The translations under genes were made by a program, and so were the position numbers. 64,000 nucleotides of DNA from a phage: NCBI GenBank assembly GCA_020619395.1, contig GCA_020619395.1_4860.1. One strand, given 5' to 3'. Every line of letters starts with the position of its first letter. Position 1 is the first letter of the stretch. This document shows positions 15,218-59,913 of this stretch, one piece after another. The notes beneath the pieces are model-generated. The model was not told the DNA's origin. It did no database searches and was given only the letters and a program-made list of their open reading frames with translations.

Positions 15218-15258
15218 GGCCCTACCTCCCCGAAGGGAGGTAGGTACCTTTTATTTAT
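15218..15258. terminator. Bidirectional rho-independent terminator at convergent junction
   Basis: CCTACCTCCC-CGAA-GGGAGGTAGG hairpin flanked by A-run (left) and TTTTATTTATTT (right). Confidence 0.75.
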
Positions 15259-15284
15259 TTCTTAGAAACTACTAAGTTGTTTTG

Positions 15285-15812
15285 TTAAACGAATCCGTCC
15301 AGTTCACCGTTGGTGGTGCTCAGGTCAGTTTTAACGATTGGCTGCGTTACAGTATAAACTGCAAGGCTGGCAGGCTGGTATTTAATGTGGCCTTCTTTCA
15401 CCATAACAGTGATGATTTTCTCACCACTGTCGCCGTCCTCGCGTGAAATGGTGAGTTCAGACAATGCAAACGCATCTTCCGTTTTACCGGCGGCAATTAG
15501 ATCTGCGTTGACAAAAGCAAGCACTTCTTCATCGGTATCCCATTCTGCCTGGTCAGCGGTAACTGCTTTCGCACCGATGATGTTCAATGAATCGAGGCGG
15601 GTATAATGCAGCTCTTTCTCGCCAGTAAAGTTAGCGGATTCCGCGGTGGCAGTGATGGTGAGTTTGGAGTTGCGAGTGTCTCCAGAATCTGCTGGTGAAT
15701 AGTCAGCAACAGCGCCGAATGTAACGTCAGCAGAAGTTAACGGACTAGACAGTCCGCTGTTTGCAGCATTAAACAGCGCAACGAGTTGGTCTTTTGCAGA
15801 GATGACTGCCAT
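15285..15812 (-). CDS. Short member of fibre-module family (175 aa)
   Basis: N-terminal module (LVALFNAAN..RNSKLTITA..ELHYTRLDSL) plus C-terminal TNGELDGFV shared with C-type paralogs. Confidence 0.65.
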   Translation of the reverse strand: MAVISAKDQLVALFNAANSGLSSPLTSADVTFGAVADYSPADSGDTRNSKLTITATAESANFTGEKELHYTRLDSLNIIGAKAVTADQAEWDTDEEVLAFVNADLIAAGKTEDAFALSELTISREDGDSGEKIITVMVKEGHIKYQPASLAVYTVTQPIVKTDLSTTNGELDGFV

Positions 15813-15892
15813 GGTTGTTTCCTTATAGTAGGTTTGTGGTGCATACTAAATCGTTCTAAAAACAACATAGTGGGCTTAATATGACAGTAAAG

Positions 15893-15920
15893 TTGGCTGT
15901 TAAACGAGAAATTTTATACC
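15893..15920 (+). promoter_or_regulatory. Possible sigma70-like promoter for lipoprotein gene
   Basis: TTGGCT, 16-nt spacer, TATACC about 15 nt upstream of the RBS. Weak match. Confidence 0.25.
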
Positions 15921-15935
15921 ACTGAAAGGTACTCT

Positions 15936-16427
15936 ATGAAACGTCTATTTATCGTATTCGCGATTATAAACCTGTTGGCCGGTTGTGTTCAGTCGCCAAG
16001 CAACATAGGACAATTTAGCGCCACACCAGTAAAGAATCACGACTTGGTGATTTATACATGCACAGGGACGCAGGAGAAGTTTATAGACTACCGTCCGGTT
16101 CTGGACAATCTACAGATGATGCCGCGGTCAGTAACAGTAATGGATGTGGGTGCAAACTGGGTAGCAACGTGGGACGGTGGCAAACTAGAGTCACCGATGA
16201 TGTTTAAAGATACAATTGGCAAAATCGACGGGAATGTTAACACCACCACAGGTGAGCGTTATTACCGTATTAATAAAACCGTAAACGATAGCCCCACTTA
16301 CTCTTTTTCGGATGTGAACCCGTATACCGGCGAAGGTAAAGGGATGACATTCTTTCGCTGCAGCAGCGGGTTTATCGGTGAAGTTCCTACTCCGATTACG
16401 ATTGTTCCGTTAGAAGAAAATAAATAA
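15936..16427 (+). CDS. Lipoprotein (163 aa)
   Basis: Signal peptide MKRLFIVFAIINLLAGC with lipobox LAGC. Lone plus-strand gene between minus-strand genes, with its own terminator. Confidence 0.7.
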   Translation: MKRLFIVFAIINLLAGCVQSPSNIGQFSATPVKNHDLVIYTCTGTQEKFIDYRPVLDNLQMMPRSVTVMDVGANWVATWDGGKLESPMMFKDTIGKIDGNVNTTTGERYYRINKTVNDSPTYSFSDVNPYTGEGKGMTFFRCSSGFIGEVPTPITIVPLEENK

Positions 16428-16429
16428 TG

Positions 16430-16470
16430 CTTACCCACTCCCGTAAGGGGAGTGGGTAAGGGCTTTATTT
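16430..16470. terminator. Bidirectional terminator
   Basis: 13-bp stem CTTACCCACTCCC/GGGAGTGGGTAAG, loop GTAA, then GGCTTTATTT; A-rich on the other side. Confidence 0.7.
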
Positions 16471-16552
16471 ACCCTCTAAAACGCTCTGTAACGCTCTCTA
16501 AGCGCATTAAACGTATCAAATGATAAATGATATTACTTTTGATTAAAGTGGC

Positions 16553-17068
16553 TTAGATTTTAACTAGCTTGCTCCAATCGATGGGTTGTTGCTTAACCAC
16601 TTTAACGGTACCACGTGTCGGTGACCAGAAGGTGATATCAGGCTGGTTGCGTACGTCAACATGCAACCAGGTAATATCGCACTCGATAAAGTGAATAAAC
16701 GGAAACTCGTTAGGGTTCGCGGCAATATAGTCGTGTACTTTCTGCAACGGAGTATCAAGCATTGTTGCATCAAACGCATTACCGAATTTATGCATACTGC
16801 CTGATTCGGCGTACAGTTTGTTTGCACGAGTTTGCCAATCTCCACCCTTTGGTTTCTCTTGATTAATAAAGAACTGCAGGGTACGCAGACTACGCTGTTG
16901 CTGGGAACTGGTTAAAATCACCATCCGCCCAAAACGATTACGAATCTGTTGGAGCGAGATTAGCAGTAACGGATTAAGGAAACGAATAGCACCTTCACCG
17001 TATTTCGCGATGTACTCCTGCGGCATCAACTCTTTTAACGCGAAGTTGGCAGGATTCGGATGAAACAT
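16553..17068 (-). CDS. Peptidase M15-like (candidate L-Ala-D-Glu / D-Ala-D-Ala peptidase, endolysin-type)
   Basis: SMHKFGNAFD (H-x6-D) and WLHVDV (second His) resemble zinc-ligand motifs of M15/VanY peptidases. AAGGAG RBS. Confidence 0.5.
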   Translation of the reverse strand: MFHPNPANFALKELMPQEYIAKYGEGAIRFLNPLLLISLQQIRNRFGRMVILTSSQQQRSLRTLQFFINQEKPKGGDWQTRANKLYAESGSMHKFGNAFDATMLDTPLQKVHDYIAANPNEFPFIHFIECDITWLHVDVRNQPDITFWSPTRGTVKVVKQQPIDWSKLVKI

Positions 17069-17077
17069 TTTTTCTCC

Positions 17078-18625: not shown

Positions 18626-18657
18626 AAAAAGAAAGCCTCTTCCCCGTGGGGAAGAGG
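18623..18657 (-). terminator. Hairpin with U-tract after 725-aa gene (leaky terminator or attenuator)
   Basis: CCTCTTCC..GGAAGAGG stem then CTTTCTTTTTAT on minus strand; overlaps the possible lysozyme start. Confidence 0.4.
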
Positions 18658-18703
18658 GCATGGGTTATCTTCAGGCTTTAAACCCGTCAAGTTCCTCGTT
18701 AAA

Positions 18704-22225: not shown

Positions 22226-22262
22226 TAAAAAAAGAAAATAGGCCCTTCAGGGCCTATTTTTA
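22226..22262. terminator. Bidirectional terminator
   Basis: TAGGCCC-TTCA-GGGCCTA hairpin flanked by A-run and TTTTT. Confidence 0.6.
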
Positions 22263-22393: not shown

Positions 22394-23296
22394 TTAGCTA
22401 AGAACCAGTTCGATAACGTGGACTACCGACGCGCTATTGGTCGAAGAGGTGTACGATGGTGTGTCTGGTGAGTTGCTGCGATAGTACCAGGGGGTGGCGT
22501 TGTCATAACCGTTGGCAAACAATGTTGCGCTTGAATCGGTTGGACTACCGCCGGAGCGCGCCGGTAAGTCGCCAAAACGTCTTACGACGCCCGCGTAGCG
22601 GAACAAGCTTGCGAACGTGTTGTGCCACTCGCCATCTTGAAAATAACCACCGCTGCTTAGGTAGGTGCTGTGCCCATAACTGTAGTCTCCGAGTCGAGGC
22701 AAACGTACCACATACTCGTAACCGTCTTTATTAAATGTCCGACGCTGGTTAGTGGTAGCGACGCCCCGTGGCGGGAAACCGTAGTCATCTGTTCCCCAGG
22801 CCAGACCTTGCTGGTATTGTTCGTTCCACGTCGTCCCTAAACGGGTCACCGTGTCAGGAATGAACAGAATGCGTCCTTTGAAAACGAATTTATGGAACAA
22901 TGTTGGAGCTTGGTTCCAGGCATTAAAGCCAATTAAACCATTCAGCTCGGCATGGTTAAGAATAAATTCTTCGTTTGTCAGTGTGCCAAAGTAGCCACGA
23001 TGCCAATCGCCACGAATAAGTTCCTGTGGGCCGGGCCCTGTCATTGGAAAGTCGCCCTGTACAATCGGCAGCCCCATAACCTTTTCAGTGCCCTTTACCG
23101 CCACGATGCGATATTGATACGTTTTATACGCCTCGGTGGTCGTGTCCTCGTACGTCGTTGTGTTACCTGGTAGTGTTACAATAGGTTCCCCCGGTGCTAC
23201 TGGGTTAACACTTTGTCTGGGGTTGTCGTAACGATAGATTTCAATGGAATCTAAAGTCTGACCTGGCTGTTGTTTCCAGTTTAAGATAATCGACAT
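22394..23296 (-). CDS. Fibre-module paralog type A, triad 3 (300 aa)
   Basis: FN3-like N-terminus (TTYEDTTTEAYKTYQYRIVAV) and central GPGPQELIRGDWHRGYFG..ELF..HKFVFKGRILF domain. Confidence 0.7.
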   Translation of the reverse strand: MSIILNWKQQPGQTLDSIEIYRYDNPRQSVNPVAPGEPIVTLPGNTTTYEDTTTEAYKTYQYRIVAVKGTEKVMGLPIVQGDFPMTGPGPQELIRGDWHRGYFGTLTNEEFILNHAELNGLIGFNAWNQAPTLFHKFVFKGRILFIPDTVTRLGTTWNEQYQQGLAWGTDDYGFPPRGVATTNQRRTFNKDGYEYVVRLPRLGDYSYGHSTYLSSGGYFQDGEWHNTFASLFRYAGVVRRFGDLPARSGGSPTDSSATLFANGYDNATPWYYRSNSPDTPSYTSSTNSASVVHVIELVLS

Positions 23297-23299
23297 GTT

Positions 23300-24298
23300 T
23301 TACTCCACTAACTCGATAACGAATGCGTACAAACCGACCTTCTCAGCACTGTCAATTAACGTAACTTGGGAGAGGTTACGTTTCGACGTATTGGTTATGC
23401 TTGAATCGATAGGCGCAGACCCGCGAACCAGAACTAATCCCGATTCAGGATCACGTTCTTGGCACAAGAAACCTTTGCCTTGGTAAGCGCTACCGCTCCC
23501 ATAAATGGACGCTGGACTAATATTAGTCCAGTTAGGGAGCATTTGTTTGTTAGGGATACAATCTCCGAACGGATAAACAAAATCGTTATATTCGCAGCGA
23601 CCATATTCCAAGTCATCATGGTCTGCGTTTCGCAACGATTCATCCAATGTCATTACTGTCGGTTCGTCCCCGTCGGTTAAACCGCGCAGCAATCGCATCC
23701 GATAGGTGTCGCCTTGCCATTCAAACAACCCACTCTGGTCAACACCTGCCAAATCCCCACGTCCGTTATCAGGACCAAATCCATCAACACCGTACACAAG
23801 CCCCGCGTTATAAATGTCATTCCACGAGTAAAGTGTAGAGTTAAATCGTCCGCCGCTGTTCATCATGTAGTAAACTTTACCATGTCGATAAAACTTGTTC
23901 ATGATTAGCGTGCCCGTGCCCGATATCCCTGTTAATGCACGAAAGCCTGCAGGCAACGCGTCATAGGTCATCTGTTCTTCGAACGGCAACTGCCCCAGAA
24001 ACGCCAAGTCGTCAGTATCGGAATAGTTAATCTGGTCGACGCCACCCACACCACGACGGTTTTTAATGACAATGGATTTTTGTGGACTACCTACGGTACG
24101 GCCGTTAACAGTTACTGTTAAAAGATACCAGTAACGGGTGTTAAGAATAACGGTTTCGTCCGTCCATTCCGTTTCGCCATTACTTAAAGTTGCAATAGGG
24201 GCTGGTAATGCGGCTGTATTTATTTTAGCCGTGCCCCGATAAATGTTAACAATTGAACCTGCCGGATTTTCATTTTTCCAGCGTAGTGTGAATGCCAT
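23300..24298 (-). CDS. Fibre-module paralog type B, triad 3 (332 aa)
   Basis: MAFTLRWKNENPAGSIVNIYRG.. N-terminus; AAGGAG RBS; 3-nt gap to A gene. Confidence 0.7.
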   Translation of the reverse strand: MAFTLRWKNENPAGSIVNIYRGTAKINTAALPAPIATLSNGETEWTDETVILNTRYWYLLTVTVNGRTVGSPQKSIVIKNRRGVGGVDQINYSDTDDLAFLGQLPFEEQMTYDALPAGFRALTGISGTGTLIMNKFYRHGKVYYMMNSGGRFNSTLYSWNDIYNAGLVYGVDGFGPDNGRGDLAGVDQSGLFEWQGDTYRMRLLRGLTDGDEPTVMTLDESLRNADHDDLEYGRCEYNDFVYPFGDCIPNKQMLPNWTNISPASIYGSGSAYQGKGFLCQERDPESGLVLVRGSAPIDSSITNTSKRNLSQVTLIDSAEKVGLYAFVIELVE

Positions 24299-24308
24299 CT
24301 GTTACTCC

Positions 24309-25751: not shown

Positions 25752-25762
25752 GAAGTCTCCTG

Positions 25763-26662: not shown

Positions 26663-26664
26663 GA

Positions 26665-27654: not shown

Positions 27655-27666
27655 TGTCGTTACCTC

Positions 27667-29163: not shown

Positions 29164-29176
29164 GGTATTTACTCCA

Positions 29177-30100: not shown

Positions 30101-30109
30101 GACTGCCCC

Positions 30110-32545: not shown

Positions 32546-32576
32546 CGCCAAAAGAGGGGGGCTCCGAAGAGCCCCT
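32546..32576 (-). terminator. Hairpin terminator between short-paralog genes and triad 1
   Basis: Minus-strand GGGGCTC-TTCG-GAGCCCC followed by CCTCTTTTGG. Confidence 0.45.
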
Positions 32577-38760: not shown

Positions 38761-38810
38761 CAAAAAAAAAGAAAAGGAAACAAAAAAAGAAGGGGAGCCG
38801 AAGCTCCCTT
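38761..38810 (-). terminator. Strong rho-independent terminator upstream of the paralog array
   Basis: Minus-strand GGGAGC-TTCG-GCTCCC hairpin followed by a long T-rich run (CTTCTTTTTTTGTTTCCTTTTCTTTTTTTTT). Confidence 0.7.
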
Positions 38811-38814
38811 TTCT

Positions 38815-40025: not shown

Positions 40026-40072
40026 GAGAGTTAATGGTTAACTCTCACCTAAGTAATATATATCTGAAAATT
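40026..40072 (-). promoter_or_regulatory. Conserved upstream motif plus leader hairpin (copy 1 of duplicated leader cassette)
   Basis: Plus-strand AACTCTCACCTAAGTAATATATATCTGAAAA and hairpin GAGAGTTAA-TGG-TTAACTCTC; about 75 nt near-identical to 58103-58180. Confidence 0.45.
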
Positions 40073-40087: not shown

Positions 40088-40127
40088 GACAAAAAAAGAA
40101 GAAACCCTACTCCCGAAGGAGTAGGGT
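40088..40127 (-). terminator. Rho-independent terminator
   Basis: Minus-strand CCCTACTCC-TTCG-GGAGTAGGG followed by TTTCTTCTTTTTTTG. Confidence 0.7.
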
Positions 40128-40167
40128 GCTGCTTTATTGACCGCTTTTGGGATAAGTGCCTCTCAAG

Positions 40168-44080: not shown

Positions 44081-44140
44081 TTTAATTGCTCCTTAATACA
44101 TGACATAAGTTCTGATTGAAACGTAAATTTCAGAGGTTCA

Positions 44141-44162
44141 CTGAGATAACATCTATCTGAAA
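44141..44162 (-). promoter_or_regulatory. Conserved upstream motif (GAGATAACATCTATCTGAAA class)
   Basis: Plus-strand CTGAGATAACATCTATCTGAAA 60-80 nt upstream of the ATG at 44080; same core at 51581, 59856, 40040, 58148. Confidence 0.4.
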
Positions 44163-44202
44163 TAAAATAAAGCGTACCAGCCACCCCGAAGGATAGCTGG
44201 TA
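44163..44202 (-). terminator. Rho-independent terminator
   Basis: Minus-strand CCAGCTATCC-TTCG-GGGTGGCTGG (two G-U pairs) followed by TACGCTTTATTTTATTT. Confidence 0.6.
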
Positions 44203-44207
44203 TACAC

Positions 44208-45326: not shown

Positions 45327-45370
45327 AACAAAAAAAAATAAGCTACCACACATATGATCGTGTGGTAGCC
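45327..45370 (-). terminator. Rho-independent terminator
   Basis: Minus-strand GCTACCACAC..GTGTGGTAGC 10-bp stem followed by TTATTTTTTTTTG. Confidence 0.75.
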
Positions 45371-45383
45371 TACTCGTACGGTG

Positions 45384-50225: not shown

Positions 50226-50695
50226 TACTTAAAAACCTTTTTGCAAACTGTGTGGAATACTTTACGAATTTCACGAAGGGATTGTTCGGTGTGCAGATAA
50301 CGATACGTTATCTTCCACGCGTTATACGTGTTTTTCAGGGTGATTTCGCTGAGGTCATAAACGAAATCATCATCAGGGTACATGAGTCTCGCCATGGATA
50401 AATCCCACAATGGTGGAATATCCGCTTTCATTAACTCAGCGACAAGCTCATGTGCTTTGTGTTCAAAGCCGATGCCAAGAACGAACACCACATGAAATTC
50501 CCCCGGTGTGTTCTTTTTAGAATATGGTCCGTGTCCATGACACGACCAGATTGTCGTGGCACCAGGATAACTACAAATGACCTCACACGCATCCCGTACG
50601 CCTTTCTCAACCCAACCGTTTACGAGCGCCTTAGACGTTCGTAGTTTAAACCGACCCAGAACATCCAGGTCCACGCCACCGTATAAAACTGGCAT
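50225..50695 (-). CDS. Hypothetical protein (156 aa)
   Basis: AAGGAG RBS; no assignable domain. Confidence 0.55.
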   Translation of the reverse strand: MPVLYGGVDLDVLGRFKLRTSKALVNGWVEKGVRDACEVICSYPGATTIWSCHGHGPYSKKNTPGEFHVVFVLGIGFEHKAHELVAELMKADIPPLWDLSMARLMYPDDDFVYDLSEITLKNTYNAWKITYRYLHTEQSLREIRKVFHTVCKKVFK

Positions 50696-50723
50696 CTTTA
50701 ATTCTCCTTAAGGGTGTCTTCAT

Positions 50724-51176
50724 TTAATGGTTATGTTCTGTAAAAATTGCGAGTGCGAGCCAGTGCTCCATCACTCTTTCCATCACATCCGGGTCAGGTC
50801 GATAGTTGAGTCTAAACGTCCAGCTTGGATAACAGAGGTTCGCGTTGCCTTCTTGACGCAGCCAAGTAAAGTTTAACTGAAAACGTTTCCCGTATTCGTG
50901 CGGCTGCCATCCTTCTAATAAATGATTAATGTCTTTAAGACCCGCCTCGGTTGCCACAAATGTTAAGCTGTGGTGTCTACGTGTACGAAGCTTGTCTCCG
51001 TCTTTGCGAACTTCTCCCGTGAATGCCCAAACGGTTGCGATATTCGGCCATTCGCTAAATGCCCTAATGATTGCACGCGTTTTAACATCGACTGGTTTTT
51101 CAGCATCCAGCGCCCGGATTGTGCGCTGCTTGTACGCGGCCAATTCCGCATCATTGACGACTGAACATTGAAACAT
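50724..51176 (-). CDS. Hypothetical protein (150 aa)
   Basis: ORF with G-rich RBS. Confidence 0.5.
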   Translation of the reverse strand: MFQCSVVNDAELAAYKQRTIRALDAEKPVDVKTRAIIRAFSEWPNIATVWAFTGEVRKDGDKLRTRRHHSLTFVATEAGLKDINHLLEGWQPHEYGKRFQLNFTWLRQEGNANLCYPSWTFRLNYRPDPDVMERVMEHWLALAIFTEHNH

Positions 51177-51196
51177 GGTATACCCCCCAAAGGGTT

Positions 51197-51237
51197 AAAA
51201 ATAAAAAGAACCCTACCTAACCGAAGTTAGGTAGGGG
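51197..51237 (-). terminator. Rho-independent terminator
   Basis: Minus-strand CCCTACCTAAC-TTCG-GTTAGGTAGGG followed by TTCTTTTTATTTTT. Confidence 0.75.
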
Positions 51238-51242
51238 ACTAC

Positions 51243-51548
51243 TTAAGCGACAGCGCGTTTGCGTTTATCGACGACTTTCTTGGTTGCTTTCGCTGCCTTC
51301 TTACTGGCAGGGATAGTATCAACCGGGGTGTCGGCTACCAAGGCACGCTCTACACCGTCTGCACGTACGACGCGCAGATTCTTCGCCTGTGGTAAGCCTT
51401 TGAAAGTGATGGTCAAACCCGCGCGGAGACCTTGATACAGAAACCCTTGCAGGTTCAGTTTCTTGGCGGTTGCAGTGTTCTCACAACCTTTCTCCACGTA
51501 CAGCAGAGTCGTACCTGCGCGTTTAACAATTGTGTATTGTTTAGCCAT
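51243..51548 (-). CDS. Small basic protein (101 aa), possible nucleic-acid-binding
   Basis: Lys-rich C-terminus KKAAKATKKVVDKRKRAVA; preceded by conserved upstream motif. Confidence 0.55.
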   Translation of the reverse strand: MAKQYTIVKRAGTTLLYVEKGCENTATAKKLNLQGFLYQGLRAGLTITFKGLPQAKNLRVVRADGVERALVADTPVDTIPASKKAAKATKKVVDKRKRAVA

Positions 51549-51580
51549 CTACTTTTTCCTTTCTTTACAGTTAGGTTCAG

Positions 51581-51602
51581 TAAAATAACATCTATCTGAA
51601 AA
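51581..51602 (-). promoter_or_regulatory. Conserved upstream motif
   Basis: Plus-strand TAAAATAACATCTATCTGAAAA about 35-55 nt upstream of the ATG at 51548. Confidence 0.4.
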
Positions 51603-51610
51603 GTCGTGCG

Positions 51611-51943
51611 TTAGACCATCATCTCTAAGCGCACATACTCTTTACGGCTAGGATGTACCTGCGCCATAATCCGATGATGTACACGGTCGATGAGCAGCGT
51701 TTCGTTTACGCGCGGAATAAACCGAAATACGTTTAACGGTAACGTGAACTCAACACCCGTCACAATATTAGACAGTGTCATTAGTTCTTCGCCGATACCT
51801 TTAACTTCTGCAACCACGGAACGATCGTGTACCTCACCACCTAACGGGGGTGTGAACGCCCGAATAAAGCGGACGTGCAGTTCCTGGTGCGTCAGTGTGG
51901 GCTCAATGGGGTTTAGGTTCGACATGAAGCTGTCCTGGGGCAT
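51611..51943 (-). CDS. Hypothetical protein (about 110 aa); start uncertain
   Basis: Tracked 183-aa ORF overlaps 51903-52220 in another frame; only the C-terminal part looks protein-like. Start at MPQDSF (51943) or MSNL (51925). Confidence 0.35.
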   Translation of the reverse strand: MPQDSFMSNLNPIEPTLTHQELHVRFIRAFTPPLGGEVHDRSVVAEVKGIGEELMTLSNIVTGVEFTLPLNVFRFIPRVNETLLIDRVHHRIMAQVHPSRKEYVRLEMMV

Positions 51944-52220
51944 ACGCGGTACCTTTTTCATTGGTTGTGTTAGCAACGCACCACATCCACTGTTTAGTTT
52001 CTTTGTCTTGCCAAGAAAACAAGATAGAACCCTCGCGGATTTCAGACGCATCAACTTCGGGATGGAATAACATGAATTCGTTTTCATCGTTGTCCACCAC
52101 GACATACTGCCCTTCTTCCATACGGTCGAAGTTAGCGACACCAACGGTAATCGGTTCCGCATCGACAGAAAGAGTCACTTCACGTTTTGGCAGGTCACGA
52201 TGAATAGCACTTAACCACAT
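51903..52220 (-). CDS. Hypothetical acidic protein (105 aa)
   Basis: AGAGGA RBS; downstream of terminator. Confidence 0.5.
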   Translation of the reverse strand: MWLSAIHRDLPKREVTLSVDAEPITVGVANFDRMEEGQYVVVDNDENEFMLFHPEVDASEIREGSILFSWQDKETKQWMWCVANTTNEKGTAYAPGQLHVEPKPH

Positions 52221-52271
52221 TCTCTTAATTCCTCTTTACGTGGGTTGTTTCACATAAGTTAGTGGACTGAT

Positions 52272-52310
52272 GTAAATAAAAAGGGACCTCCTTACCCGTG
52301 GGCAAGGAGG
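52272..52310 (-). terminator. Rho-independent terminator
   Basis: CCTCCTT..AAGGAGG interrupted stem followed by TCCCTTTTTATTT on minus strand. Confidence 0.55.
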
Positions 52311-52316
52311 CAAACC

Positions 52317-52799
52317 TTACAGTTGGTTTTCTTCGCGGTCGTCTGTCAGGACGGCTGCGCAGATAAAGCGCGCGAGTTTCAATTTCGCAGCCGCCGTCTC
52401 CTCTGCAGTCGGATTCGGGTCAACCGGCGCAGCCAAATCGACATCTGCCAGCTCTTCCGCGTATTTCTCAGCAGCTTCATCGAAGCCTGCACGGATACCT
52501 GCCAGAAGGTCTTGTACTTCATCGCTTGGCACAGGACCATCGATAAGAATCTTCTGAGCGTCAGACGGCTCTACATCGGCAAAGTTCATTTCGTTCAACA
52601 TGCCAATGCGTTCTGCGTTAGAGGTGATGAGTTGTGCCAACAGTTTTTCAAAACGGTTGATGTGTTCATCGTCCAACGGTTGACCGGTCAGTAGCTCGTA
52701 GTAGCGGGCCATAAGTGTGTTCGCGTCGGCCCCTTCCTCATGACGCACGCCTAAATCAAAATCGTGCTGAGGGAGCTGACCTAATTCGATCATATCCAT
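52317..52799 (-). CDS. Hypothetical highly acidic protein (160 aa)
   Basis: ATG 52799 with GAGG 7 nt upstream (tracked TTG 52811). Asp/Glu-rich. Confidence 0.55.
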   Translation of the reverse strand: MDMIELGQLPQHDFDLGVRHEEGADANTLMARYYELLTGQPLDDEHINRFEKLLAQLITSNAERIGMLNEMNFADVEPSDAQKILIDGPVPSDEVQDLLAGIRAGFDEAAEKYAEELADVDLAAPVDPNPTAEETAAAKLKLARFICAAVLTDDREENQL

Positions 52800-52839
52800 A
52801 GTTAACCTCAACGGTGTTTAAGGGTCATACAATGGCGAA

Positions 52840-53118
52840 TTACGCCGTTACCGGAACAGGGGTGATTAACAGCTCCCCTTCCACCTCACGTAACTGATAA
52901 CCGTACATAACGTTGTAGGATTTAATGCCGTCGCGTTGTTTGGCTTTCGCGACGAGCTTTTCCAACACGCGGCTATGTGCGCGAGTCATTTCTTCTTTCG
53001 AATAAACGACTTGGAGTACGTGCTGTTCGTCAATAACGGCACGGAACTGCATTACGTCGCCGTCCTCAACGTTGTAAACGACTTCTTTAGACTTCGACAC
53101 TGTACGATTAATTTGCAT
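52840..53118 (-). CDS. Hypothetical protein (92 aa)
   Basis: ATG 53118 with GGAG 8 nt upstream (tracked 53130 lacks SD). Confidence 0.5.
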   Translation of the reverse strand: MQINRTVSKSKEVVYNVEDGDVMQFRAVIDEQHVLQVVYSKEEMTRAHSRVLEKLVAKAKQRDGIKSYNVMYGYQLREVEGELLITPVPVTA

Positions 53119-53920
53119 TATTTTCTCCATTAGTAGTTTTCAGGGCACGTCCGTACACATAACTTTCGGGTAGCCAACCATTTTCTAATAACCACATTGC
53201 GGCTGGTCCCCCAGTATATTGGTGGTAAGTGTAAACTAATTCATCCCCCACCGGTAATTCAGACTGGATACAGTGCATCAACAGTCCGAACTCCTCTCGA
53301 GTTAGAGTAACCACCCCTTCTGCGGTAAACCATCCACCAATAACCCAGCGTCGTCCACGATGTGAGAGCACTGTCAGTTTGTAACTATCGCTGCTCCGCC
53401 ATGACATCATCCTCCCGCCCATGACAAGCGTTGAGTAGATAGAGCTTGTACCGTAAAGCATCCTAACCCAATCCAAGAACGCTTTCTTACTATCGAACAA
53501 CGAACTGACATCCCCACAGAAATCCTCATCGTGGCTAGGCACCGATGTATTAATTTTGCGGTAGTTTATCGTTTCGCAACAAAAGCCCATGCGCGAATAT
53601 TCGTCCCCTTCCGAACGAGTAAAATGCATCGCGTAGTTACACCCCGCTGAGCGGAGTAAAGCATCCGCAAGCGAGGTTAACTGGGCGTCTAAAGCACGAA
53701 CCATATTGATAACTTCTAACATGTATCCGTGGTCCAGACAGAGCACGATCGCATCAGGCGCAACTGTGTCCCGACTGAATACTTCAAAGATTCGGTAGTA
53801 AAGACGACGTTCATCTTGTAACGTGGAAGGATCGATATCATTTAACAACGATAACGCTTTACGGTCTTCCAACCACGTTCGGTCCAGAATCCTCTCCGTG
53901 CGTTCGATAACTCTCAGCAT
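53108..53920 (-). CDS. Hypothetical protein (270 aa)
   Basis: AAGGAGAG RBS. Confidence 0.6.
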   Translation of the reverse strand: MLRVIERTERILDRTWLEDRKALSLLNDIDPSTLQDERRLYYRIFEVFSRDTVAPDAIVLCLDHGYMLEVINMVRALDAQLTSLADALLRSAGCNYAMHFTRSEGDEYSRMGFCCETINYRKINTSVPSHDEDFCGDVSSLFDSKKAFLDWVRMLYGTSSIYSTLVMGGRMMSWRSSDSYKLTVLSHRGRRWVIGGWFTAEGVVTLTREEFGLLMHCIQSELPVGDELVYTYHQYTGGPAAMWLLENGWLPESYVYGRALKTTNGENNAN

Positions 53921-53929
53921 ATTCTCTCC

Positions 53930-54733
53930 TTACGCAAGGGTGTAGTGATGCGTGATTACACGATACTCTAACCCTTCGATAGAAGGAAACTCGTGCTCTA
54001 TCGCAACGCCCATGTTGACCTTCTTACCTTTCTGTCCCGCCAAATGCAAAATGGCGTGGTAGTGTTTTAGAAACTCTACCGAGTAGGCAATCGGGTCAAA
54101 ACTTTGGCAGCAGAATTGCTCAGTAATGATGCTCTTCGGGAACTCCTTATAGAGCATTAATGAAAACGGTTTCTGGCCGTGTAACCCTACAAACGCGGAA
54201 ACAAAACCATTTGCTAATTCACCCAACATCTCACGCGTTCCTGCGTCTTTTAGCGTGGGCCGCATTAGATAGCAAACATCTTGGGTTTGTTCTAATGACA
54301 ATGTCTCCAACGGGACAACTGATGGGTCTGACGTAAAGCCGTATTTCGGACTAACAGTAATCTCCACACGCTTCGTTACAGCTTCGAACCCCAGACGTTG
54401 GTACAATGCCGCATGTTCGGTGTCATGCGGAAAACAGGTAATATCAAGCATCTGCACTTCCAGGAGTCGCGTTAAACGCTTCCACTCGTGGAACAGGGGC
54501 TCGGAAAGCACGTGCAACTCGTAGATGTAGTAAACAATACCTGAACGACATCCACGAAAATACATTTGCGCACGACCGCTATTGCTCAACACTAACCAAT
54601 GATCATCTTCTTGGTCTGCGACGGGTCGCAAATCTTGAATCCGTTCACGGAGTTGCCCCAAGGTGGTCAATCGACCACTAAACTCTACGGTCAGGTCATT
54701 ATTGTCCATACCGTATAGATTAAATAGTTGCAT
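53930..54733 (-). CDS. Hypothetical protein (267 aa)
   Basis: ORF tightly packed in operon. Confidence 0.6.
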   Translation of the reverse strand: MQLFNLYGMDNNDLTVEFSGRLTTLGQLRERIQDLRPVADQEDDHWLVLSNSGRAQMYFRGCRSGIVYYIYELHVLSEPLFHEWKRLTRLLEVQMLDITCFPHDTEHAALYQRLGFEAVTKRVEITVSPKYGFTSDPSVVPLETLSLEQTQDVCYLMRPTLKDAGTREMLGELANGFVSAFVGLHGQKPFSLMLYKEFPKSIITEQFCCQSFDPIAYSVEFLKHYHAILHLAGQKGKKVNMGVAIEHEFPSIEGLEYRVITHHYTLA

Positions 54734-54743
54734 GTAAGGTACC

Positions 54744-55562
54744 TTATAAGGTGCCGATTAGCTCTGTCACTGATTTACGTTTATTCGCGTCGGCGGACAT
54801 ATATCGACCTACCTGAACTTCACGCCAGGTAAAACCGTAGTAGATGTCACGTGTGAGTAACGTATCTGCGTTTGACAGAACGACCTTATTGCCATCGGCA
54901 GCTTGTTGTTTTAAAAGTTTCGCTAACTCGCGGTGGTCAGCTTGTGAAAATTCCTTGCTGTGATACTGCGCATGTTTAGCCGTATCCGAAAGTGGGATGT
55001 ATGGCGGGTCAGCGTATATCACTGCGTTAGATGGGCACTTATTTAGGATGTCGCGGAAGTCGGCGCAGAGCAGCTCGACGTTGGTTTCCGAACAACGTTT
55101 TGCCCACGCCAGAATTTCCTCTTCAGGGAAATAGACACCGTTCGGATGTTGACCATAGGGCACGTTAAACCCACCCGACCGATTGTATCTGCACAAGCCG
55201 TTGTAACCATGACGTGTAAGATACAGGAACATCGCAGCGCGCTGGAGATTAGGTTTCCCCGTGGTTGTCTCGCTGTTAAATTCCTCACGCCGTTTCATGT
55301 ACAGACCGCGGTCCAGCCCATTTGCAAAGAGCGCCTTTGCTTCCAGTATCAACGCCTCCGGACGATCACGCGCCATGGTCAATAACTCGATTAAGTCCGG
55401 GTTCGTGTCGCCGAGAATATAGTTCGGGTATTTAGTGTTTAAAAACACTGACCCTGCACCCACAAACGGTTCAACGAAATACTCAGCATCCGGAAGCACC
55501 TGTAGAAGCTCGGGCAGTACACGACTCTTACCACCCATCCATTTTAAAATTGGTCTTATCAC
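54744..55562 (-). CDS. dam: DNA adenine methyltransferase (Dam family, GATC-type N6-adenine MTase)
   Basis: LKWMGGK, VEPFVGAGSVFLNT, FLYLTRHGYNGLCRYNRSGGFNVPYG, DPPYIPLS: near-collinear with E. coli Dam motifs (from memory). GTG start. Confidence 0.85.
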   Translation of the reverse strand: MIRPILKWMGGKSRVLPELLQVLPDAEYFVEPFVGAGSVFLNTKYPNYILGDTNPDLIELLTMARDRPEALILEAKALFANGLDRGLYMKRREEFNSETTTGKPNLQRAAMFLYLTRHGYNGLCRYNRSGGFNVPYGQHPNGVYFPEEEILAWAKRCSETNVELLCADFRDILNKCPSNAVIYADPPYIPLSDTAKHAQYHSKEFSQADHRELAKLLKQQAADGNKVVLSNADTLLTRDIYYGFTWREVQVGRYMSADANKRKSVTELIGTL

Positions 55563-55565
55563 CCG

Positions 55566-56567
55566 TTAGCATCCTCTCATGCCAGATTGAAACATGTCAT
55601 TAATCGTTGGTCTGGGGTTGGTCTCCACCGGGAGGCTAGGTTCTTCTTTCAGCACTCGGTCGGCGCGGTTCCCTTTTACGCGTTTCCAGCTAATAAGCTC
55701 AGGGTCGCGTTTCAACGTTAGTGTACGCAGTACCTGTTTGCAACGTAGGATGTTGCCATACAGGTGATTTGCTGGATTATTATCAGCAGCTGTTTCAATA
55801 TAGACTTGGTCGGAATGACGTTGTGCGAAATCGAATAGCGCGCCCATTAACCGGCGACCAATGTCACGTTTACGATGCGTAGGTGCAACCGTCAAGCCAG
55901 AAAGTTCAACGACGCCTGGTGTAACCAAGCGCATCTGGGCAATACCGACGATATCGCGGCCGTCTCGCCAAATTGCAGTCTCCACATTAGCGTGCTGAAT
56001 TCTTGCTATTACTGTTTCTGCTAACGGACCAATGTGCGTATAGTGGCCGCGCACATCGTACTCTAGCTCTTCGCAAATTGCACCACTGACCAGATTCAGG
56101 ATAACGTCTTTGTCGTCCTTGGAAAGTTCTGCGTATGCGTCACCAGAAATAATCTTGATTTCCGATGCAGTTATTACTTTATCAAACAGTTTAGAATGAC
56201 ATGCCCAGACGATATCTGAAAGAACAAACCCTTTTTCGACCAGTTTTTGTTCAACATCGTCAGTAGGTGCTGGACATGACATATATTCGAATCCGGTATG
56301 GTCTAGCACAAGGGATAAACCAACTTTATCGAATGCCCCAGGTACAAACTCCTCAAAATAGTGACAGGTTAGTGTGGGGTCACCGTGTCGATAAGTGGCC
56401 ACTAAATAACCCTCCCAGGTTTCTTTATTCTGTACCACGTAAACAGAATAAGTCTCGTCCTTTAGAAACTCTTTTAGGCGGCGTGCTCGTACAGTATCGG
56501 TACCGACGTTATTTTGGAACTCGGCAGAGCGAATGCTGCTGCGGAACAATTTAGCCACAGTTTTCAT
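55566..56567 (-). CDS. GNAT-family acetyltransferase-like protein (333 aa)
   Basis: ATG 56567 with GAGGG 8 nt upstream (tracked GTG 56597 lacks SD). C-terminal VELSGLTVAPTHRKRDIGRRLMGALFDFA resembles GNAT acetyl-CoA motif A. Confidence 0.6.
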   Translation of the reverse strand: MKTVAKLFRSSIRSAEFQNNVGTDTVRARRLKEFLKDETYSVYVVQNKETWEGYLVATYRHGDPTLTCHYFEEFVPGAFDKVGLSLVLDHTGFEYMSCPAPTDDVEQKLVEKGFVLSDIVWACHSKLFDKVITASEIKIISGDAYAELSKDDKDVILNLVSGAICEELEYDVRGHYTHIGPLAETVIARIQHANVETAIWRDGRDIVGIAQMRLVTPGVVELSGLTVAPTHRKRDIGRRLMGALFDFAQRHSDQVYIETAADNNPANHLYGNILRCKQVLRTLTLKRDPELISWKRVKGNRADRVLKEEPSLPVETNPRPTINDMFQSGMRGC

Positions 56568-56613
56568 TGTAATGCCCTCAAAAGGTAATGCTGTCACAAC
56601 ATGAGGATAACGC

Positions 56614-56654
56614 GTAAAAAGACAAAAAATTAAGGGGTCCGAAGACCCCTTAAT
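56614..56654 (-). terminator. Rho-independent terminator
   Basis: Minus-strand TTAAGGGGTC-TTCG-GACCCCTTAA followed by TTTTTTGTCTTTTT. Confidence 0.75.
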
Positions 56655-56656
56655 GA

Positions 56657-57313
56657 TTACAGTTCAGGTTTGGAGACAAGCGCCGTCCAAGTTTCAGAAT
56701 GTTTGACACTGACGTGCGCCAAGCGATTCACCATGAACGCAAATTTGTCCATATGCTTCTGCACTTCGTTATCAGTCAGATTACCAGCGATAACTTTACC
56801 GTCTTTGGTCAGCACGATATAACCGTGGTTGTTGTCTACCGTAGTAAACGCCACGTCAATCGTAACTGGGTACAGTTTCACCAGCGTCGGCAGAATATGA
56901 CCAACACGATCCGCCATACCCGCAAGCTGACCACAAAGGTCGGCTTTATCCTGCATAAACAAACGCAACATCGCTACTGCAAACACCGGATAGATGTTTT
57001 CGATTTGCGTGTCGTAACGAGACAGACCGATAACTTCATCACCACGTGTTAGCACCATGTTGTTCAGATGCGCGCCTTTATAGATGGTAAAGCGTACGTC
57101 GCTACCAAGGTTAACCGCAACGATTTCCTGACCAAGGTCAATCGGATATTCGCGCTCGATGTGAATTGTTTTCAGACGTTCACTGATTGGTACAATTACA
57201 TCCGGTTTAGGAATGGTAGGTGAACGCGGAGATTCGGTAGTACGCGTTTTTGTGGCTTTAATCGCGTTGCTTGCCATTGAATCTTTTGCTACAGTTTTAG
57301 GGGCCTTCGCCAT
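56657..57313 (-). CDS. Hypothetical protein (218 aa)
   Basis: ATG 57313 with AAGGAG 7 nt upstream (tracked 57391 overlaps upstream gene). Confidence 0.55.
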   Translation of the reverse strand: MAKAPKTVAKDSMASNAIKATKTRTTESPRSPTIPKPDVIVPISERLKTIHIEREYPIDLGQEIVAVNLGSDVRFTIYKGAHLNNMVLTRGDEVIGLSRYDTQIENIYPVFAVAMLRLFMQDKADLCGQLAGMADRVGHILPTLVKLYPVTIDVAFTTVDNNHGYIVLTKDGKVIAGNLTDNEVQKHMDKFAFMVNRLAHVSVKHSETWTALVSKPEL

Positions 57314-57335
57314 GATATACTCCTTAAGGGTTATA

Positions 57336-57725
57336 TTAGTTATCCCAGAAAGCTGCTTCTGGAAAGTCGTGTTCAAATGCCCGACGGTCATTCTCTACAC
57401 GGTTTAAATGTGTCGGTAAAGACACGCAGTTATTACAGATACAAAGTTCTTTATCCCCTTGACTGGGGTCAAAGTCGTACCATTTCCACTCAACAGTATC
57501 CCGTTTCGGGAAGGTACCTTTGCAATCGTCGCAGACCACTTCTTCAGCTGCAATTTCAGCCTGCAGCTTTTCCCAGCAGTTCTCGCACATGTAATACGTT
57601 TCGCGGCCCCATGGGTCGCACTCTGCCGTATAACGTGGAGCTATAGACCCCACTTTAAGATGTTTACATCGATCATCCTCTTCCGTCATTACACGACGGG
57701 TGATACCATTTACAAACCAATTCAT
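57336..57725 (-). CDS. Cys-rich zinc-ribbon-like protein (129 aa)
   Basis: Paired Cys motifs CENCWEK, CDDCKG, CICNNC. Confidence 0.55.
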   Translation of the reverse strand: MNWFVNGITRRVMTEEDDRCKHLKVGSIAPRYTAECDPWGRETYYMCENCWEKLQAEIAAEEVVCDDCKGTFPKRDTVEWKWYDFDPSQGDKELCICNNCVSLPTHLNRVENDRRAFEHDFPEAAFWDN

Positions 57726-57736
57726 ACGTTTGCTCC

Positions 57737-58102
57737 CTACATCACTGCAGAAGGTTTACGTGCCATGACTTTAAGTCCTGTTTCTCGTACCCGGATAGGA
57801 CAGTTATTCATGTAGTCGATGCAGGATTCAATTTTGAAGCTATGGCGGCATTTGCCGTTGATGGAACGGTAAACGATTTCGTAATTCAGGCGCAGTGTAT
57901 CGGCAACACGCATCAGAGTTTCGATAGTCACGGCTTTCTCGCGTTCATTTTTAATCGCAGAGATTTGTGACGGTGAGCAGCCTACCAACAATGCAATGTC
58001 TTTCTGCGTAACATCCTTCGCAGTGACACGAGTAATAATGTAAGAGAGACGAACCAGAAATGCTTTCTTTGCCAACACAACAGTTTGATGTTTAAAACGC
58101 AT
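57737..58102 (-). CDS. HTH (XRE-like) transcriptional regulator
   Basis: KDIALLVGCSPSQISAIKNEREKAVTIETLMRVADTL fits helix-turn-helix_3 pattern; AAGGAG RBS; first gene after the conserved leader cassette. Confidence 0.65.
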   Translation of the reverse strand: MRFKHQTVVLAKKAFLVRLSYIITRVTAKDVTQKDIALLVGCSPSQISAIKNEREKAVTIETLMRVADTLRLNYEIVYRSINGKCRHSFKIESCIDYMNNCPIRVRETGLKVMARKPSAVM

Positions 58103-58133
58103 TAGAATACTCCTTTAGATTAATAGTCGATTA

Positions 58134-58177
58134 GAGAGTTTAACGACAACTCTCACTAAGGTAATATATATCTGAAA
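58134..58177 (-). promoter_or_regulatory. Conserved upstream motif plus leader hairpin (copy 2 of duplicated leader cassette)
   Basis: Hairpin GAGAGTT-TAACGAC-AACTCTC and AACTCTCACTAAGGTAATATATATCTGAAA; 58103-58180 near-identical to 39995-40072. Confidence 0.45.
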
Positions 58178-58217
58178 TTTAGTGGACTGGAAGCAAAAAG
58201 CATAGGACTGTTCTGAT

Positions 58218-58259
58218 CTGTAAAAAAGACAATGCCCTCTTACCCGAAGGTAAGAGGGG
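58218..58259 (-). terminator. Rho-independent terminator
   Basis: Minus-strand CCCTCTTACC-TTCG-GGTAAGAGGG followed by CATTGTCTTTTTTACAG. Confidence 0.7.
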
Positions 58260-58264
58260 TACAA

Positions 58265-58888
58265 CTAACCTGCCAGAATACGTTCAACGATACGGGCGGC
58301 CTGTAACGCCATATCGTCGTCTGCTGTAATTCGCATCAGTGGAAACTTATCACCACCGTCTGTAGTGATGTGGAACGCAAAACGGTAATGGTCGCGTAAG
58401 GCGTCCCAATCGGTCTGTGAGCGCAGATACTTCGCTGTCAGTACCTCATCATCCCAGTGCTTACCTTGTGCTTCTACGCGCTTCTTAAAGCGTTCTGTGG
58501 CGGTTTCGTAAGATACATCGGTTGCCACGTAAAGCTTTGGTGCGTTAATGTGGTCTAATACTCGCGAACGGAAAACTTCCCCTTTACCATCTACGCCCTG
58601 GTAGACAATGGTCGATTGACAAAAACGGTCAAAAATAACGACATCGTGCTCTGGTACAACGAAATCCATTGTATATTGGAAATCCAGACACATCGCTTTG
58701 GCAATACGTTCATTAGAGGCGTGCTGGATAACCAGAGAGCGTGCACTAATACCGGCTTCAGTGGTATTCGTCGGGTGATTGACGATGGTGACATTAACGC
58801 CAGCGGAGCGCAACATCGCTTGAATCATTTTCGCGAGTGTTGATTTGCCAGAAAAGTCCGGACCATCCAGCGCCACTGAGTTTAACAT
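58265..58888 (-). CDS. tmk: Thymidylate kinase-like dNMP kinase (207 aa)
   Basis: P-loop ALDGPDFSGKST and DRFCQSTIVYQG (DRY..AYQG-like) typical of dTMP kinases. ATG 58888 with GGGGAAG upstream (tracked GTG 58930 lacks SD). Confidence 0.65.
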   Translation of the reverse strand: MLNSVALDGPDFSGKSTLAKMIQAMLRSAGVNVTIVNHPTNTTEAGISARSLVIQHASNERIAKAMCLDFQYTMDFVVPEHDVVIFDRFCQSTIVYQGVDGKGEVFRSRVLDHINAPKLYVATDVSYETATERFKKRVEAQGKHWDDEVLTAKYLRSQTDWDALRDHYRFAFHITTDGGDKFPLMRITADDDMALQAARIVERILAG

Positions 58889-58948
58889 TTTATTCTTCCC
58901 CAAAAGTTTAATTAATTGTAGTGGTGTCACAATATAGCGAGCATACGT

Positions 58949-58986
58949 AAAGAAAAAAAATAATAGGCACTCCGAAGAGTGCCTAG
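58949..58986 (-). terminator. Rho-independent terminator
   Basis: Minus-strand TAGGCACTC-TTCG-GAGTGCCTA followed by TTATTTTTTTTCTTT. Confidence 0.75.
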
Positions 58987-58991
58987 CTTAC

Positions 58992-59756
58992 TTAGAAGTC
59001 AACTCGCGTTTTCGATTTTTCCTCAATGCCTTCTGGCCATGAATCAATCCACGCCTGCAGCACCGCAGCTACACGGGGCTCAGCTAAGAACTTCTTCAAC
59101 AACGGCCATGACTGGAGAGGATATAAAAACTTCAACGAAACTTGACCTGGGTCAAACTCATTCCGAACAGTAAACGGTAAACGGAAATCATAAGTTACCT
59201 GAACAACTGGCTCACTGAAAGGCTGGCCAAAGAAACTCAGGTTCCGAGTTACCGAAAGGACGTGCCCTGCAAACTCACCCCGAATCAGTTCGCTGCTCTT
59301 AACGGAGACAAACGAATAACCGTCGGTGTTCGGCTTACGCAGTCGTTCGGTTTTCATCACGTTAGCGAAGAAGTTATCAATCACTTCTTCGACCAATACG
59401 TAATTCAGACACTCCCCACGCAACGCCTCGAGATTGTGTTGAGACCATGCATCCCATAGCGCCGGTTTTCTGGCAATCAGCTTAAAGAACAGACGTGCAG
59501 AAACCGCCCGGAGTTCGCCGAGCATTTTCTTGGTCAGTTCAGTTTGATCCCAACTAGGGGCACAAAAGATTGTCCTTCCGCCGGAACCTACTAAGGTGGC
59601 ACCGGTCACGCTGTTAATCAGTTTGTGACTTAACATGTGCGGAATACCTTTTGGTGTCAGGTCATTTTCGTTATACGTGAATACGTAGCGATACTGACCA
59701 TCTGCGGTAGGTACGGAAAGCCATTCTTTGGTTGCTGCTTTATTGAGTTTTGACAT
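58992..59756 (-). CDS. Hypothetical protein (254 aa)
   Basis: ORF following conserved upstream motif. Confidence 0.55.
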   Translation of the reverse strand: MSKLNKAATKEWLSVPTADGQYRYVFTYNENDLTPKGIPHMLSHKLINSVTGATLVGSGGRTIFCAPSWDQTELTKKMLGELRAVSARLFFKLIARKPALWDAWSQHNLEALRGECLNYVLVEEVIDNFFANVMKTERLRKPNTDGYSFVSVKSSELIRGEFAGHVLSVTRNLSFFGQPFSEPVVQVTYDFRLPFTVRNEFDPGQVSLKFLYPLQSWPLLKKFLAEPRVAAVLQAWIDSWPEGIEEKSKTRVDF

Positions 59757-59855
59757 TTTGTTTACTCGCTTTTAAGTTTAAGTTGGTGAGTTTTAACCGA
59801 CTCACAACGGCTTCTAGCATATGCTAAGGATGAAACGTAATTTTTGCACGTCTCC

Positions 59856-59879
59856 CTAAGATAACATCTATCCAAAAAA
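59856..59879 (-). promoter_or_regulatory. Conserved upstream motif
   Basis: Plus-strand CTAAGATAACATCTATCCAAAAAA, with TGAAACGTAATTT shared with the 44101-44140 copy. Confidence 0.35.
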
Positions 59880-59880
59880 G

Positions 59881-59913
59881 AATAGAGTCGACCCACTCCC
59901 GAAGGAGTGGGTA
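59881..59913 (-). terminator. Rho-independent terminator
   Basis: Minus-strand ACCCACTCC-TTCG-GGAGTGGGT followed by CGACTCTATTCTTTTTTGG. Confidence 0.6.

Follow-up and report, generated by a model that had tools for sequence, protein, structure and literature searches.

Ten intergenic hairpins in a 64,000-nucleotide stretch of phage DNA (contig GCA_020619395.1_4860.1 of NCBI GenBank assembly GCA_020619395.1; hereafter the window, numbered from its first letter) are, with a probability that we put at roughly 0.8 from the sequence, factor-independent (intrinsic) terminators of the minus-strand genes of an SPN3US-like jumbo phage. Each hairpin has a loop that reads CGAA on the plus strand and UUCG on minus-strand RNA. 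The window is assigned to a Salmonella jumbo phage of this type in the genus Seoulvirus, with 95-98% identity to relatives from Salmonella, Escherichia, and Proteus, and it corresponds, in antiparallel orientation, to roughly 88-152 kb of SPN3US. The RefSeq record of SPN3US annotates zero terminators. Intrinsic termination is argued from a stable stem, a U-run on one side only, a position just past a stop codon, G·U pairs in the sense orientation only, an orientation that follows gene direction, and compensatory evolution. A preliminary description of the window had called these hairpins stereotyped terminators; the likeness to intrinsic terminators on minus-strand transcripts (stem, U-tail, post-stop position, sense-only G·U pairs, and covariation) has held up well, whereas the accompanying statements that the design is uniform and that several sites are bidirectional have not.

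On the plus strand, CGAA stands at exactly the ten positions that had been proposed (15231, 32565, 38799, 40114, 44187, 51222, 56640, 58245, 58973, and 59900, which also serve as names for the sites), where it forms the loop of an inverted repeat in every case. A C-G pair closes each of the ten loops, which read C(UUCG)G on minus-strand RNA. At nine sites the stems are perfect and span 6-11 base pairs (bp). At the tenth, 44187, two C·A mismatches on the plus strand become G·U pairs on minus-strand RNA, an early hint that the hairpin functions as minus-strand RNA. The ten sites are as follows, with distances in nucleotides (nt):

15221..15244, minus strand: cUUCGg hairpin of 10 bp, -19.6 kcal/mol, between convergent genes and with U-runs on both strands; 41 nt past the stop of minus-strand gene 15285..15812 and 18 nt past the stop of plus-strand gene 14532..15203.
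32558..32575, minus strand: cUUCGg hairpin of 7 bp, -14.1 kcal/mol, with the weak tail CCUCUUUUGG (5/8 U); between two virion-structural genes, 6 nt past the stop.
38790..38811, minus strand: cUUCGg hairpin with a 6-bp GC core and an A-U extension, then CUUUUUUUG; 4 nt past the stop of the SPN3US gp129 homologue, with TTTTCTT on the plus side.
40102..40129, minus strand: cUUCGg hairpin of 10-12 bp, -16.1 kcal/mol, then UUCUUCUUUUUUU; z-score -6.0.
44172..44205, minus strand: cUUCGg hairpin of 15 bp including the two G·U pairs, -20.6 kcal/mol, then UUUAUUUUAUUU; 3 nt past the stop.
51211..51236, minus strand: cUUCGg hairpin of 11 bp, -18.3 kcal/mol, then UUCUUUUUAUUUUU; z-score -5.6, 7 nt past the stop.
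56629..56654, minus strand: cUUCGg hairpin of 11 bp, -16.6 kcal/mol, then UUUUUUGUCUUUUU; 3 nt past the stop.
58235..58258, minus strand: cUUCGg hairpin of 10 bp, -17.2 kcal/mol, with the tail CAUUGUCUUUUUU; 7 nt past the stop of the thymidylate kinase gene (tmk).
58962..58987, minus strand: cUUCGg hairpin of 9-11 bp, -12.8 kcal/mol, then AUUUUUUUUCUUU (8/8 U); 5 nt past the stop.
59891..59912, minus strand: cUUCGg hairpin of 9 bp, -16.7 kcal/mol, within an extended outer stem; 6 nt past the stop, with 4/8 U past the inner stem and a UUUUUU run, UAUUCUUUUUU, that starts only past the outer stem.

The hairpins are strongly enriched. A scan at the RNA level, in which G·U pairs and one mismatch were allowed, put the number of UUCG-loop hairpins in the window at exactly ten; every one is on the minus strand and lies outside the open reading frames (ORFs). 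The window holds nine perfect CGAA or TTCG tetraloop hairpins with a stem of 6 bp or more, whereas 200 dinucleotide-preserving shuffles of it gave 0.16 on average and 2 at most. A general terminator scan with loose criteria returned totals close to those from shuffled sequence (24 versus 19.3 and 11 versus 9.3), so only its top-ranked matches are informative, and the ten UUCG hairpins rank at the top. No Rfam family matched anywhere in the 64-kb window. Folding energies, proposed early on as a check, were calculated with ViennaRNA in contexts of 56-66 nt, with the tetraloop bonus included and 200 shuffles per site. The UUCG hairpin is the minimum-energy fold at all ten sites (-16.8 to -27.5 kcal/mol in context, -10.0 to -20.6 kcal/mol for the hairpin by itself), and six of the sites are more stable than every one of their 200 shuffles.

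Position and strand asymmetry point to the same conclusion. The U-tracts that the preliminary description had seen at nearly all sites are borne out at eight of the ten, where at least six of the eight nucleotides directly 3′ of the stem are U. Every hairpin begins 3-41 nt past a co-directional stop codon, and all lie between coding sequences annotated in the SPN3US RefSeq record. When the ten are aligned on their loops, the only constant parts are C-UUCG-G and a U-rich block 12-25 nt past the loop. This block is confined to the 3′ side on minus-strand RNA, apart from plus-side T-runs at 15231 and 38799. The 5′ arms share a mean pairwise identity of only 33%, so the hairpins are not copies of a repeat. 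G·U pairs occur in the sense orientation only, at 5 of 77 stem pairs in the window and 16 of 244 in the UUCG terminators of SPN3US, and the mean fold energy is -16.8 kcal/mol for the sense strand versus -15.0 kcal/mol for the antisense strand. The features that define an intrinsic terminator, namely a stable GC-rich stem-loop, a U-rich tract on its 3′ side (strong at eight of the ten), and a sense position past the end of a gene, are found together here.

Comparison with relatives indicates that these structures are maintained in evolution. Syntenic 50-kb regions were compared in Salmonella phage SPAsTU, Erwinia phage pEa_SNUABM_29, and Erwinia phage Asesino, which belongs to a different genus, and contain five, six, and eight UUCG terminators, respectively. 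At 58245 a T-A pair is replaced by C-G, with a U·G intermediate in Asesino and the loop kept. At 56640 the arms GGGGUC/GACCCC have become GGGAGC/GCUCCC and GGGGGC/GCCCCC, and the loops of the relatives are UUCG, UUUU, or UUUUC. The sites orthologous to 44187 have had the stem wholly replaced and retain UUCG. The stem is kept at 40114 as the loop drifts from UUCG to UCACG and UCCU, and likewise at 51222 as the loop drifts from UUCG to UCCG and the 6-nt CUGUCC. The best case for covariation is the terminator behind tmk, for which seven orthologous sequences could be aligned, including those from two distant IMG/VR contigs at 62-64% protein identity. In this set 97% of the cells are paired, three pairs have changed on both sides, and the loop is invariant. 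The covariation rests on seven sequences since a search for related loci with thymidylate kinase gave only three.

The same pattern extends over the whole SPN3US genome. It has 36 UUCG-loop hairpins, and the 33 that are intergenic lie 2-51 nt past the end of an ORF on the same strand. These 33 are divided into 29 on the plus strand and 4 on the minus strand, with an orientation that tracks gene direction, and 27 of them have a U-run on the sense side. We also defined a strict terminator-like set (intergenic, -10 kcal/mol or better, at least six U in eight nucleotides, and no more than 150 nt from a stop codon), which comprises 49 hairpins in SPN3US. Tetraloops cap 41 of the 49; 24 are UUCG, all closed by C-G, 31 of the 41 fall in the YNMG class, and the GNRA class is represented by 0. 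Among hairpins of equal stability inside SPN3US ORFs, the UUCG loop appears in only 3 of 422. The idea that UUCG terminators are limited to one temporal class of genes was rejected, as in SPN3US they are found behind small genes that look early and also behind late ones, for example that of the major head protein.

To call the design uniform is too strong for the window itself, which has five other good minus-strand terminator-like hairpins with different loops:

16428..16462, both strands: bidirectional terminator-like hairpin of 13-15 bp between convergent genes, without UUCG; the loop is GUAAG on plus-strand RNA and CUUAC on minus-strand RNA.
18634..18659, minus strand: terminator-like hairpin with a CACG loop (YNMG type) and a U-tract.
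22235..22260, minus strand: terminator-like hairpin with a UGAA loop and a U-tract.
45334..45377, minus strand: terminator-like hairpin with the 8-nt loop GAUCAUAU and a U-run on its 3′ side.
52286..52311, minus strand: terminator-like hairpin with a U-tract; its CACG loop is replaced by UGCG in Erwinia phage pEa_SNUABM_29.

UUCG is thus dominant, at 10 of about 15 minus-strand terminator-like candidates in the window, and not universal. The hairpin at 45334-45377, which reads GCUACCACAC and GUGUGGUAGC on either side of its GAUCAUAU loop, keeps both its stem and its 8-nt loop in SPAsTU, pEa_SNUABM_29, and Asesino (GAUCUUAU), whereas other terminators drift in one or the other. There is a GATC (Dam) site in its loop, and a DNA adenine methylase is among the proteins that the phage encodes. 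This hairpin may be more than a terminator.

The claim of several bidirectional terminators reduces to one site. Among the ten, only 15231 lies between convergent genes with T-runs on both sides; at 38799 a plus-side T-run is present, but there is no plus-strand gene for it to serve, and the other eight are without a plus-side T-run. The loop of 15231 is of interest in its own right. It is exactly inverted between phages, with CGAA at 15231-15234 on the plus strand of the window versus TTCG in SPN3US (within 138779-138859), and these loop positions are the sole differences between the two phages within 81 nt. Which of the two convergent transcripts carries UUCG therefore differs between the two forms. 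The window form is matched at 100% identity by at least 18 related records, and Proteus phage 7 and Salmonella phage 1252 have the identity, with four mismatches, that is expected for the SPN3US form. The polymorphism was inferred from identity values in the phage collection and was confirmed for SPN3US only. Exact-pattern scans of IMG/VR with both loop orientations matched only SPN3US itself.

How these hairpins would work can be outlined. Once the inverted repeat is transcribed, the RNA would form a stem rich in GC, with the unusually stable, fast-nucleating C(UUCG)G loop as its cap. We assume that this loop adopts the C(UUCG)G fold known for the motif (a trans U·G wobble with a syn G) and carries its extra thermal stability at these sites. 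The hairpin, together with the weak rU:dA hybrid of the U-run, would then bring about transcript release, and it would stay behind as a 3′ cap that slows 3′-to-5′ exonucleases. A second, nonexclusive role as a 3′ exonuclease barrier is likely. By analogy with phiKZ, and unlike at bacterial terminators, the readers would probably be the phage's own multisubunit RNA polymerases, virion and non-virion, rather than the host enzyme (PMC10914365, PMC7598289). Two such polymerases have been described for the phage group, and the eight beta-type subunit genes in the SPN3US record fit with this (PMC7598289). Sigma-70-like promoters were not enriched in the window in either of two scans (19 versus 25.7 expected; 8 versus 11.2). 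The analogy draws on three other phages. Transcription of phiKZ is independent of the host, and most of its mapped 3′ ends fall at hairpin terminators (PMC10914365). Terminators of 201phi2-1 are functional in vivo (PMC11512511), and AR9 terminates at predicted intrinsic terminators (PMC5312081). For the window phage, we infer that transcription does end at the ten sites, and the findings suggest that the split, sigma-less multisubunit polymerases of nucleus-forming jumbo phages respond to canonical signals of hairpin plus U-run. The preference for UUCG would most simply reflect the extra stability and fast folding of the loop. In line with this, insertion of a UUCG loop into a terminator led to higher termination efficiency of T7 RNA polymerase (Mairhofer et al. 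2015, as related in PMC9157156).

Several points weigh against intrinsic termination. Stability at 38799 (z-score -1.05) and 32565 (z-score -1.70) is only marginally above that of the shuffles, and the U-runs are weak or displaced at 32565 (5/8 U) and 59900 (4/8 U). The drift of loops in relatives to UUUU, UCCU, UCACG, or a 6-nt loop with stem and tail kept indicates that the UUCG loop is not strictly required. The literature yielded no transcriptome, 3′-end, or in vitro termination data for SPN3US-like phages. Finally, phage T4 provides a cautionary example. C(UUCG)G hairpins are a classic intergenic feature of T4 (Tuerk et al. 1988 PNAS 85:1364, via PMC8948821), and yet in our T4 sample a U-tract follows only one of six CUUCGG hairpins, so a UUCG hairpin alone is no proof of termination. 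The roles published for these hairpins include stabilization of mRNA, with gene 32 mRNA as the case, rather than termination (PMC8948821).

These T4 hairpins, mostly intercistronic and without U-tracts, lend themselves to an alternative in which the hairpins of the window are mainly RNA-stability or processing elements, acting as 3′ or intercistronic exonuclease-blocking caps or as RNase marks while polymerases read through them. Such a role would also suit the several hairpins among the ten that separate co-directional genes only 40-150 nt apart, as well as the 3′-5′ exoribonuclease and the ribonuclease that SPN3US encodes. We nevertheless consider it unlikely as the main function. A pure stability hairpin needs no U-run, and yet the U-run is present, on the sense side only, at 8 of 10 sites in the window and 27 of 33 in SPN3US. 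In addition, a promoter-like motif (described below) follows many of the hairpins, as would be seen at the ends of transcription units. It should be kept in mind that stabilization and termination are not mutually exclusive. The resemblance to T4 is genuine in that the C(UUCG)G motif is mostly intergenic and on the coding strand in both cases, with similar densities per 50 kb (6 in the first 50 kb of T4, 7.8 in the window, and 7.5 in SPN3US). The contrast in U-tracts, however, ties the motif to terminator architecture in the window phage.

Comparison with bacterial terminators brings the loop itself into focus. The ten hairpins are like bacterial Rho-independent terminators in their GC-rich stem of 6-15 bp, their tetraloop, their immediate 3′ U-run, and their location a few nucleotides past a stop codon. 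In the compilation of E. coli terminators by d'Aubenton-Carafa et al. from 1990, UUCG and GNRA tetraloops are both reportedly common caps. The choice of loop in SPN3US is far more one-sided, with cUUCGg at about half of the strict set and GNRA at none. A 100-kb sample of E. coli K-12, small, taken without an intergenic filter, and standing here as a proxy for the host, gave 13 terminator-like hairpins, of which one had a UUCG loop (closed by U·G) and several had GNRA-type loops. The Salmonella/Erwinia phage lineage has therefore pushed the cUUCGg choice far beyond this small sample.

Such a bias could mean that the cUUCGg/YNMG cap is specifically recognized by a phage polymerase or RNA-binding protein and forms a lineage-specific code for termination or 3′ ends. 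If this were true, the code would have a scope of the SPN3US-like phages and perhaps of all phiKZ-like jumbo phages, and the candidate reader would be the divergent multisubunit polymerases or a phage protein bound to the 3′ ends of mRNAs, for instance with a role in termination, in protection, or in export out of the phage nucleus. It would explain both the absence of GNRA caps among 41 SPN3US terminator tetraloops, 31 of them YNMG, and the retention of UUCG through full stem replacement at the orthologues of 44187. Some of the loop changes also stay within the class (UUCG to UCCG, CACG to UGCG). Other changes, on the other hand, leave the class (UUUU, UCCU, CUGUCC) with stem and tail intact, and one-third of the terminator-like hairpins in the window do without UUCG. 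The stability and fast folding of UUCG would already suffice as an explanation, and the preference is also seen in T4, in E. coli, and in engineered T7 terminators (the last per PMC9157156). We regard a recognized cap as quite improbable and prefer to treat the ten hairpins as intrinsic terminators whose loop is favored for its physical properties.

A reading at the level of DNA, with the hairpins as dispersed (REP-like or mobile) repeats, cruciforms, or protein-binding sites that have no role as RNA, is hardly credible: inverted repeats are symmetric in DNA, stem words do recur in SPN3US (CCCTCTTACC three times and CCCACTCC-like words several times), and the flip of the 15231 loop by inversion is a DNA-level event, but the low identity of the 5′ arms leaves nothing like the shared sequence of REP-like elements, the strand asymmetry is of an RNA type (G·U pairs, which are A·C on the other strand, and a one-sided U-run), the correlation of loop orientation and U-run side with gene direction held when tested, and no Rfam family was matched.

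Another close parallel to the terminators of the window is found in phiKZ and 201phi2-1. These related jumbo phages have RNA polymerases of their own, and their hairpin terminators are likewise numerous and stereotyped. These two phages share a conserved terminator motif, BCCYCCCCHWWDGGGRRGGBYTTAT (PMC10914365, PMC11512511), for which the window has no match with up to three mismatches allowed. In phiKZ the stem is stereotyped, the loops vary, and the tail is a short TTAT(G), whereas the window phage has variable stems, a stereotyped loop, and a tail that consists of a long canonical U-run. A 50-kb sample of phiKZ had UUCG as its commonest single loop (5 of about 25 sites), along with many other loops and the short TTATG tail. 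The notion that use of UUCG separates the SPN3US lineage from phiKZ was accordingly dropped; what distinguishes the two is a matter of degree and the type of tail. A cUUCGg terminator also lies just past the major head protein gene in both phiKZ (120600) and SPN3US (72436), which hints that some UUCG terminators are ancient in the phiKZ-like lineage or have been repeatedly selected after highly expressed genes. Engineered T7 RNA polymerase terminators combine the same elements of UUCG cap, GC stem, and T-run (Mairhofer et al. 2015, via PMC9157156). They are synthetic and serve a single-subunit polymerase, in contrast to the natural, genome-wide design of the window phage. The design as such is already known from the CUUCGG hairpins of T4 and from E. 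coli terminators; what is particular here is the dominance of one loop and its tie to a long canonical U-run. These findings leave the current understanding of termination unchanged. Their value lies in a map of likely transcription-unit ends for a phage group without a published transcriptome, with 15 candidates in the window and about 49 in SPN3US. The hairpins could also serve as compact, predicted strong terminators in enterobacterial synthetic biology, a use to which the terminators of 201phi2-1 have already been put.

The map is extended by a promoter-like motif with the consensus tttcAGATAKATRTTAYCTYAGtgag. It occurs 5 times in the window and 22 times in SPN3US, almost always in the same direction as the genes. 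The copies in the window are as follows:

40048..40065, minus strand: promoter-like motif AGATAKATRTTAYCTYAG, just downstream of terminator 40114.
44141-44158, minus strand: promoter-like motif, abutting terminator 44172..44205.
51580-51597, minus strand: promoter-like motif.
58156-58173, minus strand: promoter-like motif, following terminator 58245.
59856-59873, minus strand: promoter-like motif, following terminator 59900.

Four of the five are no more than 100 nt downstream of a UUCG terminator, and the motif is also found past the tmk terminator in L010 and L011, two distant relatives from IMG/VR. The motif probably represents the AT-rich consensus of early promoters read by the virion RNA polymerase, a consensus said to be predictable in every such phage (PMC7598289). 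Because many terminators have this conserved AT-rich motif within 100 nt, the region is probably cut into short terminator-promoter cassettes, an arrangement that the two elements together would predict.

The predicted leaders that follow the motif have features of their own. Two 5′ leaders on the minus strand (40026-40070 and 58134-58170) share the inverted repeat GAGAGUU...AACUCUC directly past the promoter-like motif. The repeat recurs in SPN3US at 94239, 113986, and 165687, with a variant, GAGCGUU...AACGCU, at 223277, and amounts to a conserved small hairpin at the predicted 5′ end of the transcript. Two other minus-strand leaders (44117-44128 and 59831-59842) share the word AWTTACGTTTCA about 22 nt downstream of their promoter-like motifs. 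The leader of gene 58992..59756 contains a 37-nt stretch (59775-59811) that is 97% identical in Erwinia phage ChrisDB, where it is intergenic, and that search gave no other ChrisDB match within window positions 50000-64000. This stretch may be a conserved leader RNA element. A further intergenic hairpin at 35186-35213, made up of GGAGGAGG and CCUCCUCC around an AUUU loop and lacking a U-run, overlaps a Shine-Dalgarno-like GGAGGA upstream of the gene that starts at 35167 and might sequester the ribosome-binding site.

Two observations concern the genes of the window. Relative to SPN3US (106026-108926) and other relatives, about 2.9 kb is absent at about 45106-45126, which removes the greater part of genes gp144-gp142 (virion structural, tail fiber, and tail proteins). 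A 13-nt near-repeat, AGACGGTAAYCTT, contains the junction, and ORFs of 104 and 270 amino acids (aa) replace a tail protein of 1005 aa. This could reflect a natural deletion variant, a defective genome, or an assembly artifact. Lastly, the minus strand at 22394-38658 holds an array of paralogous virion-structural genes, in which a repeated three-gene cassette (about 332, 470-498, and 307-311 aa) is followed by about seven genes of 265-303 aa; the 332-aa copies are 39% identical to one another, and the 480- and 470-aa copies are 31% identical.

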